64,000 bases of DNA from Enterobacteria phage Kha5h: the sequence record NC_054905.1, one strand, 5' to 3'. Below are positions 8,409 through 29,772 of this stretch, in pieces. Position 1 is the stretch's first letter. Each line of letters starts with the position of its first letter. Below the pieces are notes generated by a model. It saw only the letters and a program-made list of their open reading frames with translations, had not been told where the DNA came from and ran no database searches. The position numbers were made by a program, and so were the translations under genes.

Positions 8409-8416
8409 TATTTATA
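8409..8416 (-). promoter_or_regulatory. late promoter TATAAATA for soc
   Basis: Exact TATAAATA on minus strand ~30 nt upstream of soc ATG. Confidence 0.6.
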
Positions 8417-9263
8417 AACCATTTTCAAACCTCTTTATCATATTTATATAGTTTTCATCGGGATAACCTAGACTAACTGCTAACTTTCTAAAATTGACAT
8501 ATTTAGGTTTGTTGTTATTAATCCATAATTCTCTAAGCTCTTTTTCATAATTCCATTTAAGTTGATTTCTGCGTGCAGTTTTGCTTAAAGTTTTTCCTTT
8601 AGCTTTTAAAGCTTTTTCGGATGATTGTTTTAATTTTTGAATATTTAAAACTTCTTCTATAGATAAATTATTTTCCTTTGAATACCTTATGCAAAAATCT
8701 TTTACTACGGCTATTAGGCAATTTTTGTGAGTACCTAAAATTTCTGGGTTATTTTCTTCAACTAAAATTCCCCAATATCTTCGGTAGCGAGGCATATCCC
8801 TTGAAATCCAGTCATTATACCAAAAATCAAAGTTGGAATACATGAAAGATTTTCTTTTGCGAAGAGTATCTTGGTTTATCCATTGCTCACGTTTATCAGC
8901 CCATAACTTAATAGTAAAGTCTTTCTCTAAGTCAGAAAGCTTCTTAAATTGCGAGCTATTTACTGAGGTCATTCTCTGGAATGCATTCAGCAATCCAAAT
9001 CTTCCAGTTGAACATAAGAGATAGTGAACATATATGTGTTGATATATTGGGAGATATACTCTATTCCAAGGATATATTTTAAAATCACTATACTCAGGAA
9101 ATGCGCATTTAGGAAGTATATGATGGGCTTCTGTTTTAGATTTAATGTGAGTGTTTAACTTATACTTATCTATAATTTTTAAGTACTCATCTAAAAGTTC
9201 CCATTGCGGGAACTTTTCTTTAAGAGCAGATTTGAAATTAATATCCATTATCTTGACGTTCAA
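8412..9263 (-). CDS. HNH-family homing endonuclease (free-standing)
   Basis: AHHILPK ... WNRV ... QHIYVH (H-N-H); basic C-terminal tail; 5' end overlaps 3' end of gene 56. Confidence 0.6.
   Translation of the reverse strand: MNVKIMDINFKSALKEKFPQWELLDEYLKIIDKYKLNTHIKSKTEAHHILPKCAFPEYSDFKIYPWNRVYLPIYQHIYVHYLLCSTGRFGLLNAFQRMTSVNSSQFKKLSDLEKDFTIKLWADKREQWINQDTLRKRKSFMYSNFDFWYNDWISRDMPRYRRYWGILVEENNPEILGTHKNCLIAVVKDFCIRYSKENNLSIEEVLNIQKLKQSSEKALKAKGKTLSKTARRNQLKWNYEKELRELWINNNKPKYVNFRKLAVSLGYPDENYINMIKRFENGL
8441..8448 (-). promoter_or_regulatory. second late-promoter-like TATAAATA
   Basis: Exact octamer inside the 3' end of the HNH gene. Confidence 0.35.
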
Positions 9264-9756
9264 AATTATGTTTGTTCTTCAGATAATAAAGTTTAAAGAT
9301 TTCTTCAGCCGTAAGACCGAGACCTTGGAACATGTTCAGAACGAAATGAAGAATATCAATCATTTCGAATTTAATTTCCAACTGGTCTTGTGGAGACAAA
9401 TCAGTAATTAAAGTTTCACGACGTTCACCATGTTGAGCTTTCCAAGGCTTCCATACAGCAGATGCATCTTTTTCGCCATTGCTCATACCACCAAGAGAAG
9501 TCAATAGTTCGCGGAATTCATCATCAATATAATCTTTCTGATTACGCAGCCAATCAACAACTTCACCCGCAGTAGCCAAATCATCAGGATGACGGTTATA
9601 TTCAGGTTTATCTTTAGCTAAACGAACCTGAAGAGATTTCTGCATATCAAGCATAACTTGCAGCGGGTCTTTTTCATCACCGAGAATATCCCAGTATTCA
9701 TTTTGAGCTTTATCAGCGCCTTCAATCAGTTGACTACATTCGTTGAAATGTGGCAT
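9238..9756 (-). CDS. 56: dCTPase/dUTPase gp56
   Basis: 172 aa; recognised as T4 gp56; MotA-box middle promoter upstream. Confidence 0.85.
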   Translation of the reverse strand: MPHFNECSQLIEGADKAQNEYWDILGDEKDPLQVMLDMQKSLQVRLAKDKPEYNRHPDDLATAGEVVDWLRNQKDYIDDEFRELLTSLGGMSNGEKDASAVWKPWKAQHGERRETLITDLSPQDQLEIKFEMIDILHFVLNMFQGLGLTAEEIFKLYYLKNKHNFERQDNGY

Positions 9757-14498: not shown

Positions 14499-14858
14499 TT
14501 AAAAGAATTTAAATTTTTTCTTTGACCTTTTATTAAATGCATCTTGCAGTTGCATTGTAATACATTTTTCTACATGAGGAGCTAACTCAGCTTTTCTTTC
14601 TTGGTCAAGAACAGCAAAGTCCATTACAACCTTTCCATCAACCCAATCCAGTTTAGTTACATACACTATATGTGTAGAACCATCTTCTAGTTTAATGACA
14701 ATCTCCTGGATAACATTTTCCATGGCAGATTTAATTATCTTAAGAGACTCGTTAAAAAGACGTTCTTTTCTTTCTTCCCCCTCCGAAGAGGGGGATTCAT
14801 CGATAATTTCTAGATCTAAGTCTAAATCATCTTTATTCATTAAATTCTTCCATATCAC
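14499..14858 (-). CDS. 40: gp40 head-assembly protein
   Basis: 119 aa; position between 41 and uvsX. Confidence 0.6.
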   Translation of the reverse strand: MIWKNLMNKDDLDLDLEIIDESPSSEGEERKERLFNESLKIIKSAMENVIQEIVIKLEDGSTHIVYVTKLDWVDGKVVMDFAVLDQERKAELAPHVEKCITMQLQDAFNKRSKKKFKFF

Positions 14859-16014
14859 TTAACTGCTCGAGGTCAGTTTCTAAATCAGCTGCTGATTTAC
14901 TTTTACTTTCTGGAGATTTAAATTTTTCAACCTTTGAGTTAATCAATTCATCAACTTCAGCTTCAACAATTTCATTACTATCAATAGCACCTAACTGATA
15001 AGCACGTTTAATAGCATCTCGGAATGGTTGATGCTTAAATAAAGGACCCCAGAATGTAGTGCAGTTGGTATCTTTTGCACGCCAAGATTTTTCTTCGCGA
15101 ATCATCTCGCCAGTTTCTTCGTCAAGAAATTCACGAGCATACCAACCATTCTTAGGTTTTACAACAAATCCTAATTCTAGAGCCATATCTAACAATCCAG
15201 AATAAGGATCGATACCACCGTCAAATTTAACATCAATAAAGAATTTACTTTTTTCTTTAACGGTACGAGATTTTTCTACATTTAGAACAAATTGATACCC
15301 CTGAAGATCAGAACCATCTTTAATCTGGCGTTTACCGATAATGAATACAGTATCAGCCGAATACATTACGCCTGTACCACCTGTCATCACGGTTTTACTA
15401 AACATTTCAATTGTTTCAATTGTATGGTTAACCGCAACACATGGAATATTTTTAATGCTAAAATAAGGAGTAACAATACGGAATAATGACTTCAGTGATT
15501 TAGCACGAGTCATATCTGCCACAGATTTTTCATTCAAGGCATCTTCCGTTTCTTTCTTAGAAGCCATATTACCGATTGAGTCGATGAATACAATAACCTT
15601 TTCACCACGCTCAATAGCTTCAAGCTGGTTCACCATATCAATTTTCAGCTGTTCAACTGACTGAATTGGCGTATGAATTACTCGTTCCGGGTCAACTCCC
15701 ATGGATCGTAAATAAGCTGGAGTAATACCAAATTCGCTATCATAGAATAGACAAACCGCGTCAGGATATTTGTTCAAATATGCCGCAACCATAGTCAAAG
15801 ACATATTTGATTTAAAGTGTTTAGAAGGCCCTGCGAAAATAGTTAAACCAGACTGCATGCCGCCATCAATCGCACCAGAAATAGCAATATTAAGCATTGG
15901 GATTTTTGTACGGATTACATCCTTTTCATTAAAGAATTTAGATGTAGTCAGTTCAGCAGTCATTTTAGAAGTGGAAGCTTTAATCAAACGGGATTTTAAA
16001 TCTGCAATAGACAT
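14833..16014 (-). CDS. uvsX: UvsX recombinase (RecA-like)
   Basis: 393 aa; Walker A GPSKHFKS; acidic C-terminal tail. Confidence 0.95.
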   Translation of the reverse strand: MSIADLKSRLIKASTSKMTAELTTSKFFNEKDVIRTKIPMLNIAISGAIDGGMQSGLTIFAGPSKHFKSNMSLTMVAAYLNKYPDAVCLFYDSEFGITPAYLRSMGVDPERVIHTPIQSVEQLKIDMVNQLEAIERGEKVIVFIDSIGNMASKKETEDALNEKSVADMTRAKSLKSLFRIVTPYFSIKNIPCVAVNHTIETIEMFSKTVMTGGTGVMYSADTVFIIGKRQIKDGSDLQGYQFVLNVEKSRTVKEKSKFFIDVKFDGGIDPYSGLLDMALELGFVVKPKNGWYAREFLDEETGEMIREEKSWRAKDTNCTTFWGPLFKHQPFRDAIKRAYQLGAIDSNEIVEAEVDELINSKVEKFKSPESKSKSAADLETDLEQLSDMEEFNE

Positions 16015-16091
16015 TCATTTTTTCCATAGGCATCATTATATTTTCCTCACTGGTTAAAGATAGAGTAATTATAACACAATAAATTTAGGCA

Positions 16092-16940
16092 TTAATCAAC
16101 TGCTATTGGATGAATAGCATTAAACTTATGAAATGCTTCTGATTTTTCTTTACGTGAAACACACATGCGAAGAACCTTTAATGGCTCGTCTTCTTCACCC
16201 AACGATTTTCGTTTTTCAATATTAGAAGTTTTCCAACGAGCTTGCTCTGGAAACTCTCTATTGATTTGCTCAAGCGCTCTATTATGTTTAGAATTACTGC
16301 GAATTGAACTACACCCGCCAGGAGCTTGTGCTTTTCCAGATACAACCAGATATTTGAACAAGGCCAAATGCGGATAACCTTGACTAATTAAATTGAGAAA
16401 TGCATACATATCTTCGCATAAATCAATTTTTCCATACCCAATTTGTTCTGTAGTAAGTTTTCCGAGGTCATACCATGTATTCGTGAATCCATATGAATTT
16501 TCACGATAATTACCCCAAGATGAAGTAATTTTAAAAATAGGTAGACGAGCATGGCCATGATAATACCCACAATCCATGGCATCCTCAACATATTGAATCA
16601 ATTCATAGAACTGTTCATGAGTCAATTGATTGACTTTATCCACACAACGACGGTCATCTCTTTTTCGCATTGAACTCATACGAATAGTAGTATCATCGTC
16701 AATCATCCAAATTCGTTGACCTGCATACATATCAGTAATTGCTTTACGAGTACCGGCAATTCCGTTTACATCATCAGGAATAGTTATAATTTTAGCTCTA
16801 GACCCATAAGCATCATAATAAGCTTTTTCTTCGTGTTCACGCACTACAATATGGGGTTCATAATCAGTCGGAAACATATTAAGGGCAGAAACTGCCCCTA
16901 CACGCTGATAACTTGGAATTACGAATTGAATCATTTCCAC
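16092..16940 (-). CDS. GT-A fold glycosyltransferase at the beta-gt locus (putative beta-alpha-glucosyltransferase)
   Basis: 282 aa; VIPSYQR and DDD motifs typical of family-2 glycosyltransferases; not T4-type beta-gt. Confidence 0.6.
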   Translation of the reverse strand: MEMIQFVIPSYQRVGAVSALNMFPTDYEPHIVVREHEEKAYYDAYGSRAKIITIPDDVNGIAGTRKAITDMYAGQRIWMIDDDTTIRMSSMRKRDDRRCVDKVNQLTHEQFYELIQYVEDAMDCGYYHGHARLPIFKITSSWGNYRENSYGFTNTWYDLGKLTTEQIGYGKIDLCEDMYAFLNLISQGYPHLALFKYLVVSGKAQAPGGCSSIRSNSKHNRALEQINREFPEQARWKTSNIEKRKSLGEEDEPLKVLRMCVSRKEKSEAFHKFNAIHPIAVD

Positions 16941-17671
16941 TCACCGTTATAATCTTTTTTCACAATATGAGTTTCGCCAGTATTCCACCAATGATCAACC
17001 AAGTAAAAATGACGAGAATATACATGAAGACTTCCAACATTCCATATAATAGAACCTGCTTTATACTGACGAGTTGAATCGCCTGCATTCAAATCAGATA
17101 CTAATTTATCTAATACGTATTTTTGCCATGCATAATCATTACGGAATCCGAAGACCACGTCATTTGAGCGCATGCTTACTACTGCATTGACTTTCTTATC
17201 ACGAATCAGGTACTGTACTGTATTAGTACACATGAAATCTGACATACCATCTTTATTGTAGTCAAATTGCATGGATGGACGAGTATAAATCATGATACCA
17301 CGCCGAGAATCAGGATTTTGACCAAGTTCAGCTAAACACATATCATACTGGGCATAGTTATCTTCTGACCAAATAGCCCAACCATAATTCGAGTTAATTT
17401 CGCCTTTAGAAGATGCTACCTGCTGCCAAATCTTTGGTGTTTCACCTGGAATATCTTTAACAAACAAGCTCTTAGATTTATACCATTCAAGTTCGCGCTG
17501 AATGTATTCATCATTAAGAGCGCCAAAAATAAACGGTTCATCTGCTACAAATGATGCGCCAATAATTTCAATAGTTTTAACACCAGTTTTATCAACTACG
17601 AAATCTTTTTCCTTTAATGCAAGCCCCAAATGAAGACGGATTTCTTCAACTGTCATAGAGTCACTAATCAT
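16931..17671 (-). CDS. 42: dCMP hydroxymethylase gp42
   Basis: 246 aa; thymidylate-synthase-like; recognised as T4 gp42. Confidence 0.9.
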   Translation of the reverse strand: MISDSMTVEEIRLHLGLALKEKDFVVDKTGVKTIEIIGASFVADEPFIFGALNDEYIQRELEWYKSKSLFVKDIPGETPKIWQQVASSKGEINSNYGWAIWSEDNYAQYDMCLAELGQNPDSRRGIMIYTRPSMQFDYNKDGMSDFMCTNTVQYLIRDKKVNAVVSMRSNDVVFGFRNDYAWQKYVLDKLVSDLNAGDSTRQYKAGSIIWNVGSLHVYSRHFYLVDHWWNTGETHIVKKDYNGEWK

Positions 17672-17697
17672 TTAAACCTCAATTGATGCATTCATAT

Positions 17698-17829
17698 TTA
17701 AATTGTAACAGTAATAAACCCCACCCCTATGATAAGAGTTGGAATCATAGCAGGAACTGTTACGCTATAGTATATACTTATTATAACCATCAAGATTAAA
17801 AGCAACACTGTTATAATTTTGCTTTTCAT
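17698..17829 (-). CDS. small hydrophobic peptide (43 aa) below track cutoff
   Basis: ATG overlaps imm stop (ATGA); MKSKIITVLLLILMVIISIYYSVTVPAMIPTLIIGVGFITVTI. Confidence 0.35.
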   Translation of the reverse strand: MKSKIITVLLLILMVIISIYYSVTVPAMIPTLIIGVGFITVTI

Positions 17830-18077
17830 TCTTTCTCTCTGATGATAATTACCTGATTTGGCTGTGCAGACTTTTTAGTTTCACCAGCAATTGACCAAAT
17901 AAATGTAATAAACCAACCAATAATTGACCAGTTAAACAGTAAAGATGTGAAAAAGATTCCTACTGTCGATTTTGACCCACGCATCAAGGCGATAAACCAT
18001 GGAAGCATGTATATAATAATAGCCAACACACCTGAAACTAAAACCATAAAAATTGAACCTGCTACTAAAGTTTCCAT
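17826..18077 (-). CDS. imm: superinfection immunity protein Imm
   Basis: 83 aa, two TM helices; recognised as T4 Imm. Confidence 0.85.
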   Translation of the reverse strand: METLVAGSIFMVLVSGVLAIIIYMLPWFIALMRGSKSTVGIFFTSLLFNWSIIGWFITFIWSIAGETKKSAQPNQVIIIREKE

Positions 18078-28554: not shown

Positions 28555-28570
28555 AAGGGCCGAAGCCCTT
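28555..28570 (-). terminator. tetraloop hairpin after alpha-gt
   Basis: AAGGGC-CGAA-GCCCTT; stop codon inside stem. Confidence 0.55.
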
Positions 28571-29772
28571 TATTTTGTAATAATGTCAAATTGCTCTTTA
28601 AAGCAGAAGCTTGAATCTTGATGCTGATACAAAAATTCATACGCTTTTTCTCGCTCACGGTCATAAAGAGCTCGGTCAGATGACAGTTCTTTAATACGCT
28701 CGAATGTTGATTCCATATCATTTTCATCAAACCAAACGATACCGCTATCATGCGAAATTAGCGGAGTATTATCAACACGGAATTTTAAATTTTCGCCAGT
28801 AGATTTCCAAAATACCGGAATTGTTCCACATGCACCAAGCTCGAGATGAGTATATTCTAAAGAACGCTGTAGATATTTTTTATCCAACTTACTCAACTGA
28901 TAACCAAATCCGGATTTACTCATACGTTCAAGCATTTCGCTATTTACATAACGGTCAAGAATTTGCGTTGGCAAATTAGGAGCAATTTTAATTTGGTCTA
29001 CTTGATGAAGACGATAATACTCGTATGGAATTCCTTTTTCTTTAATAGGAATGAACGCTGGAGAACGTTCCAGACCTTCCATAATAGTACTTAGTCCTGC
29101 AGGTTTAAGATGTTTTTCGTGAAAATCAAACATCTGATAAAAACCTTTCCATGTAGTCGTACGACCAATCCAACGGTTGATATTCATGTTAATTTCAGAA
29201 ACATCTTTCCAGTAAGTTGACCGAACCTTCGCAATATCCATAGGAGGCTGAAAGTTATATACTGTCGGTGCTTCTTCAATATCATCAAACAGAGAAACAG
29301 TTTCTGGATACCATTCTTTCATCAGAACTTTATTAAAATCACCATTATCAGAATGGCTAAAAATAACATCAGCTCGACGAACAGTTTCTTCTAATCCCAA
29401 ATTTCGGCGCAAAGAAAGAGAAGAATGGTCATGTTGATAAACTACAACACGAACAGAAGGTTTAATGTTATCAATAATTTTTTTATAGTTATTAATCGTG
29501 TCTTCTTCAACCGAAGTAGCAGGAACTGAATTGATAATTAGAATATCACAATCATTTACCAGCTTAAGTGTTTTATCATATTCTTTTGCCAATAAAACCG
29601 GAATTGAAAATGATTTATAATCATGCGCGCAATTACGAGTAAATGATTTATCTTTAGCATAAACCAAAGTCACTTCATGACCATTTTTAATAAACCAATC
29701 ACGTTGCTCGAGTGAGAATTTTGTTACACCACAACCTTCAAGACCTCGAGCCATAAAAATACATACTTTCAT
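28570..29772 (-). CDS. a-gt: DNA alpha-glucosyltransferase
   Basis: 400 aa; recognised as T4 alpha-gt; MotA-box promoter upstream. Confidence 0.9.
   Translation of the reverse strand: MKVCIFMARGLEGCGVTKFSLEQRDWFIKNGHEVTLVYAKDKSFTRNCAHDYKSFSIPVLLAKEYDKTLKLVNDCDILIINSVPATSVEEDTINNYKKIIDNIKPSVRVVVYQHDHSSLSLRRNLGLEETVRRADVIFSHSDNGDFNKVLMKEWYPETVSLFDDIEEAPTVYNFQPPMDIAKVRSTYWKDVSEINMNINRWIGRTTTWKGFYQMFDFHEKHLKPAGLSTIMEGLERSPAFIPIKEKGIPYEYYRLHQVDQIKIAPNLPTQILDRYVNSEMLERMSKSGFGYQLSKLDKKYLQRSLEYTHLELGACGTIPVFWKSTGENLKFRVDNTPLISHDSGIVWFDENDMESTFERIKELSSDRALYDREREKAYEFLYQHQDSSFCFKEQFDIITK

Follow-up and report, generated by a model that had tools for sequence, protein, structure and literature searches.

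Which glycosyltransferase is encoded between uvsX and gene 42 in Enterobacteria phage Kha5h, at the position occupied by b-gt in T4, and how would it modify the hydroxymethylcytosine (hmC) of phage DNA? A preliminary description of the locus, based on the sequence alone, had proposed a 282-residue family-2 glycosyltransferase responsible for T2/T6-style modification, in which the alpha-linked glucose carried by hmC is extended to a disaccharide. We analyzed the 64,000-nucleotide stretch of DNA that contains the gene (NC_054905.1), hereafter designated the window. We assign a probability of about 0.95 to the reading that the gene is an intact orthologue of that encoding the beta-glucosyl-HMC-alpha-glucosyltransferase of T2 and T6 (ba-gt, also designated ggt or TAGT). 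The enzyme activity catalyzing the second glucosylation in T2 and T6 has been known since the 1960s.

The program-made list of open reading frames contained an uninterrupted frame on the minus strand at 16092..16940, encoding 282 residues if translation starts at a GTG codon. The translation opens with MEMIQFVIPSYQRVG and contains WMIDDDTTI further in. The third codon of this frame is an ATG (16934..16932), which overlaps the TGA stop codon of gene 42 (16933..16931) as ATGA. In T2, the annotated orthologue begins at the equivalent ATG (843 nt, 280 residues), and the N-termini of all homologues follow the pattern M(xx)IQFVIPSY. Since the overlap, the T2 annotation, and the homologous N-termini agree, the ATG at 16934 is almost certainly the true start, as read from the sequence, and the GTG start at 16940 was dropped. 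The two surplus codons of the mechanical call, GTG GAA (16935..16940), are situated within the 3' end of gene 42 and probably do not contribute to the translated ba-gt protein. Together, the frame, the matches to PHROG 842 and PF20691, and the identity to T2 delineate a coding sequence extending over 16092..16934 on the minus strand (280 codons followed by a TAA stop codon at 16092..16094). The frame and its location between uvsX and gene 42 were thus as previously proposed, with a length amended from 282 to 280 residues. Three short plus-strand frames (16165..16377, 16551..16673, and 16716..16952) are antisense within the conserved ba-gt gene and were given no weight.

The gene order uvsX, ba-gt, 42, imm is common to the window, T2, T6, and EH2. 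The uvsX gene (14833..16014) encodes a UvsX-like recombinase of 393 residues (PHROG 97, E = 7e-110). Gene 42 (16931..17671, minus strand), the product of which is designated gp42 in the T2 annotation, encodes a 246-residue dCMP hydroxymethylase providing the hmC precursor (thymidylate-synthase family PF00303, E = 1e-15; PHROG 160, E = 5e-67). The alpha-glucosyltransferase gene taken as present in the preliminary description, a-gt, was located at 28570..29772 on the minus strand. Its 400-residue product matches the full PF11440 AGT profile (positions 1-355 of 355, E = 2e-236) and PHROG 2888 (E = 4e-222). Both acceptor-making enzymes, encoded by gene 42 and a-gt, are full length in the window. 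A probable gene 56, encoding a dCTPase/dUTPase, was detected at 9238..9756 on the minus strand (PHROG 173, nucleoside triphosphate pyrophosphohydrolase, E = 8e-47). The location of this gene beside the primase gene corresponds to the T4 gene order, and its likely product is a dCTPase keeping unmodified cytosine out of phage DNA.

Comparison with T4 (NC_000866) by blastn revealed that homology stops at position 16002 of the window and restarts at 16949. The intervening segment without DNA similarity to T4 (16003..16948) holds ba-gt and the 77-bp spacer preceding uvsX, whereas the corresponding interval in the T4 annotation, of about 1.94 kb, contains b-gt and the homing endonuclease gene segA. 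A tblastn search of the whole 64-kb window with T4 b-gt returned no match at E ≤ 10. Likewise, BLASTP detected no similarity between the T4 enzyme (351 residues) and the ba-gt protein (best E = 0.28 over 10 residues), in agreement with the preliminary description, which had found the protein to be unlike the T4 beta-glucosyltransferase. The two enzymes have in common their genomic slot, the use of UDP-glucose, the beta linkage, and the hmC-DNA substrate (see also PMC13216743). The T4 enzyme (PF09198) differs by its fold, which is GT-B rather than the GT-A fold predicted for the ba-gt protein (PMC13216743), and by its acceptor, the hydroxymethyl group of hmC, which is replaced by the glucose of alpha-glucosyl-hmC for the ba-gt enzyme, as deduced by orthology.

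Two family models identified the ba-gt protein. PHROG 842, 'beta-glucosyl-HMC-alpha-glucosyltransferase', matched residues 2-277 (E = 6e-89), and Pfam PF20691 (TET-associated glycosyltransferase, TAGT) matched with 40.3 bits for a gathering cut-off of 27.5 (E = 4e-10). Membership of the PHROG 842/PF20691 family of the T2/T6 enzyme was indicated both by these above-threshold matches and by full-length similarity. Alignment with the T2/T6 enzyme, the verification suggested at the outset, showed 98% amino acid identity to T2 over 280 residues, with all family-invariant residues kept and five differences (R11H, N19D, H106R, S184N, and P251S, the window residue being given first). Residues N19, Y40, D55, and S184 differ from T6, and three residues differ from the enzyme of phage EH2 (98.9% identity). 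The residues specific to the window, N19 and S184, are both found in other homologues, at variable columns of the alignment. The ba-gt gene and the T2/T6 gene thus encode products of the same length (280 residues), are flanked by uvsX and gene 42, overlap the latter as ATGA, have alpha-gt as a partner, and share the invariant residues; they are distinguished by point substitutions only, nothing structural being different.

At the DNA level, the 3-kb stretch around ba-gt is 98.1-98.6% identical to numerous Tequatrovirus genomes (T2, RB3, RB14, GiZh, and Sf22), in which the gene located between uvsX and gene 42 is annotated as beta-glucosyl-HMC-alpha-glucosyl-transferase. Homologues were detected by tblastn in 687 phage records, with at least 95% identity for 470 of them and 60-80% identity for about 200 others, which belong to T4-like phages of Klebsiella, Enterobacter, Salmonella, and Citrobacter. 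Over 24 kb, the window shares about 98% identity with teqsoen, KRT47, and comparable phages. By its sequence, the window reads as an ordinary T2/T6-like Tequatrovirus. Orthology, synteny, and partner genes support the main interpretation of the preliminary description, according to which the alpha-linked glucose would be extended to a disaccharide as in T2 and T6.

Earlier publications already cover the enzyme and its GT-A fold, the genomic position of the gene, its association with alpha-gt, and its consequences for defence systems. The PF20691/TAGT family has already been identified as the T2/T6 beta-glucosyl-HMC-alpha-glucosyltransferase, and T6 TAGT was modelled as a GT-A enzyme and placed as the sister of GT2, TarP being its closest representative (PMC13216743, 2026). 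In the same study, alpha-GT and TAGT were reported to be a common pairing and the alpha and beta pair of T4 to be rare (6 of 753 genomes). The present results agree with that study on every point and provide nothing new on the window gene. The ba-gt gene is annotated at the same position in hundreds of sequenced Tequatrovirus genomes. The value of the result lies in the annotation.

To examine the fold, 51 TAGT-family proteins were collected by two homologue searches, and a 49-sequence alignment with identities down to about 13-25% was obtained. The AlphaFold model generated from the single sequence was unusable (pLDDT of 39.6) and was replaced by an AF2 model based on the 49-sequence alignment (pLDDT of 92.3, pTM of 0.90). 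The best Foldseek matches of the latter model in the PDB were WrtF, TarS, K4CP, TarP, and RmlT (E of about 1e-6, TM of about 0.5). The model comprises one alpha/beta/alpha domain of the Rossmann-like type that matches solved structures of GT-A enzymes, which supports a GT-A fold for the ba-gt protein. The protein aligns with the T2/T6 enzyme in sequence and with GT-A enzymes in structure; alignment with glycosyltransferases was one of the points on which the original proposal had been made to depend.

Both motifs noticed in the preliminary description, VIPSYQR and DDD, were read in the sequence. The IPSYQR motif (residues 6-11; 16902..16919, minus strand) covers the first strand and the following loop of what is modelled as the nucleotide-sugar-binding core of the GT-A fold. 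The DDD motif (residues 79-81; 16692..16700, minus strand) corresponds to the DXD motif for binding of the metal and the nucleotide-sugar; it occupies the canonical position since it directly follows the core strand E74-78 in the model. Residues R11, R63, D79, D80, and D81 are invariant (49/49) and all kept in the window protein. Conservation is also high for I6 (48/49), P7 (46/49), R32, Y39, T62, and R212 (at least 92% each), and D175 (88%). The invariance of R11 and D79-D81 in 49 homologues, with identities down to about 13-25%, indicates that the two motifs are not chance features.

The assignment to a GT-A glycosyltransferase was therefore retained, whereas the attribution to family 2 proved too specific. 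The GT2 family model (PF00535, Glycos_transf_2) did not match, the Pfam scan at E ≤ 1 yielding PF20691 alone. Searching PDB sequences with phmmer gave no meaningful match, the chains returned being unrelated, PNPOx-like, and at E > 1, and a profile search of the PDB gave a single, non-significant match to a GT2 chain (9jma, E = 0.23), in which IPSYQR aligns with IPTYNR. Sequence alone cannot place the protein in GT2 on such matches. Structures of the GT13, GT12, and GT27 families scored as well as those of GT2 as structural neighbours, and the GT2 alignments span about 180-210 of the 280 residues. Family 2 membership is not established since the family model did not match, the profile match is non-significant, and several GT families tie structurally. 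The inverting GT-A enzymes of the GT2 family (TarS/TarP of S. aureus, the PglI-like AvpGT 9jma, and SpsA) are only 8-16% identical to the ba-gt protein. Their acceptor is a lipid, a teichoic acid, or a glycan, in contrast to the sugar on duplex DNA expected for ba-gt, and the C-terminal third of the ba-gt protein (residues 200-280, approximately) has no GT2 counterpart in the structural alignments.

The partner genes and the orthology suggest a three-step pathway. The gp42 protein would make hm-dCMP, leading to incorporation of hmC during replication, and the alpha-glucosyltransferase (28570..29772) would then add an alpha-linked glucose to hmC in duplex DNA. The ba-gt enzyme would finally transfer a second glucose from UDP-glucose to the first one, in beta-1,6 linkage, to form gentiobiosyl-hmC. 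Addition of a beta-1,6 glucose to alpha-glucosyl-hmC is the reaction catalyzed by the T2/T6 enzymes, gentiobiosyl-hmC accounting for 5% in T2 and 72% in T6 (PMC6024577), and T6 from which ba-gt is deleted contains alpha-glucosyl-hmC only and becomes more sensitive to the Brig1 glycosylase (PMC11078745). The present analysis shows the orthology, the synteny, the intact motifs, a GT-A fold, and the partner genes; the activity of the T2/T6 enzymes, the linkage, and the gentiobiosyl-hmC measured in close relatives are taken from the literature. The ba-gt enzyme would be a metal-dependent GT-A enzyme, in which the divalent metal and the pyrophosphate of UDP may be bound by the DDD motif (79-81). 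The nucleotide-sugar site may be lined by the IPSYQR segment, Arg63, and Arg212, with Asp175 as a candidate catalytic base. The reaction would be inverting since the donor is alpha-linked and the product beta-linked. We infer these residue roles and the inverting mechanism of the window copy from GT-A enzymology; the extent of diglucosylation is likewise a prediction.

The position of the gene raises the possibility that the GT-A transferase uses another donor or acceptor, transferring a different sugar or modifying hmC directly as a functional replacement of the T4 beta-glucosyltransferase. TAGT homologues also occur alone or with a beta-GT (PMC13216743). However, a change in specificity is very unlikely because the protein is 97-99% identical to the T2/T6 enzymes, the function of which was assigned by genetics and biochemistry. 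In addition, Tequatrovirus phages combining alpha-GT and TAGT, the latter at the site syntenic to b-gt, contain gentiobiosyl-hmC and no beta-glucosyl-hmC according to HPLC/MS (PMC13390438). A pseudogene or inactive remnant is an even less probable reading of the ORF. Lesions of the gene are present in two public T6 records, indicating that loss of ba-gt is tolerable in laboratory stocks, but the window copy is full length, free of stop codon and frameshift, and retains all invariant residues, and its start is translationally coupled to gene 42.

The main reading, a functional ba-gt orthologue, leaves the extent of the second glucosylation to be considered. The enzyme could work as weakly as in T2, in which case the DNA would be mainly mono-alpha-glucosylated, with a few per cent of gentiobiosyl-hmC. 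The Kha5h protein is 98% identical to that of T2, which carries the gene and nevertheless contains about 5% gentiobiosyl-hmC (PMC6024577, PMC11078745), and intermediate ratios have been reported for some Tequatrovirus phages (PMC13390438). We nonetheless regard a T2-like profile, the main rival reading, as unlikely. Arg11 is present in the window as in T6, EH2, and 49/49 family members, His11 being seen in T2 and SV76 records only. Furthermore, EH2, the enzyme of which is three residues away, was found by HPLC/MS to contain about 2/3 gentiobiosyl-hmC and 1/3 hmC, as did six other Tequatrovirus phages with alpha-GT and TAGT (PMC13390438). Since Arg11 is kept as in T6 and EH2, a similar profile is predicted from the sequence for Kha5h DNA, consisting mostly of gentiobiosyl-hmC with some bare hmC and no beta-glucosyl-hmC. 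This T6-like prediction is only probable because the extent of second glucosylation varies between phages with nearly identical enzymes (5% in T2, 72% in T6, and about 40% in Geo, EL, and BGP; PMC13390438, PMC11078745).

Within the IPSYxR motif, codon 11 specifies His in the T2 gene (LC348380, 1593-2435). Arg is found instead in the window (16902..16904), in T6 and EH2, and in each of the 49 TAGT proteins of the alignment. The exact N-terminal 44-mer of T2 containing His11 was found in 8 of 680 records, all from T2 or SV76, a count that would miss His11 joined with any other change in those 44 residues. We tentatively raise the possibility, which we consider rather doubtful, that R11H weakens the T2 enzyme and that this single hypomorphic substitution explains the classical difference between 5% gentiobiosyl-hmC in T2 and 72% in T6. 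We found no statement in the cited literature that R11H is the cause of this difference. If R11H were indeed hypomorphic, a T6-like modification state could be deduced from the sequence of the phage.

Both public T6 records harbor a lesion in ba-gt. In MH550421 (3138-3980), codon 10 is changed from CAG to the amber codon TAG, and the annotated product is cut to 261 residues. In AP018814 (3135-3974), a 3-nt deletion shortens the invariant DDD motif to DD. Judging from the sequence, either lesion would be expected to impair the enzyme, a surprising observation in the reference phage for high gentiobiosylation. These lesions could be due to stocks that diverged or were propagated on suppressor hosts, or to errors in the sequences.

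The glucose of gentiobiosyl-hmC is not removable by BapA (bioRxiv 10.64898/2026.02.25.707755). For Kha5h, the expected gentiobiosyl-hmC and lack of beta-glucosyl-hmC predict relative resistance to Brig1, a glycosylase of alpha-glucosyl-hmC, and to BapA, a deglucosylase, with sensitivity to GmrSD-type enzymes being maintained (PMC11078745; bioRxiv 10.64898/2026.02.25.707755; PMC13216743; PMC13390438).

Additional elements were observed in and around the locus. The 77-bp spacer between ba-gt and uvsX (16015..16091, minus-strand sequence TAATGCCTAAATTTATTGTGTTATAAT) contains, by eye, a TGCCTAA element that precedes TATAAT by 11 nt. Judging by its resemblance to MotA-dependent middle promoters of T4, the spacer is a candidate only for such a promoter of uvsX; the element was not among the sites listed by the sigma-70 scan. 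Scanning 15800..17900 for promoters and terminators gave as many sites as expected by chance (10 versus 9.5 expected and 1 versus 0.9 expected, respectively). A hairpin with a 9-bp stem (16880..16900, minus strand, TAGGGGCAGTTTCTGCCCTTA) was flagged as terminator-like within codons 12-18 of ba-gt; its sequence is conserved in T2 and T6, and the number of such sites was 1 for 0.9 expected from shuffled sequences. The segA copy that adjoins b-gt in T4 is missing from the ba-gt locus. A homing-endonuclease-like ORF is present elsewhere in the window (8412..9263, minus strand; PHROG 655, E = 9e-34), with weak tblastn similarity to T4 SegA (E = 3e-6). This ORF partly coincides with the dCTPase-like gene (9238..9756), at the 3' end of the latter. 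Finally, a 43-residue hydrophobic ORF is located between gene 42 and imm (17698..17829, minus strand), and a small 'phage protein' is annotated at the matching place in EH2.
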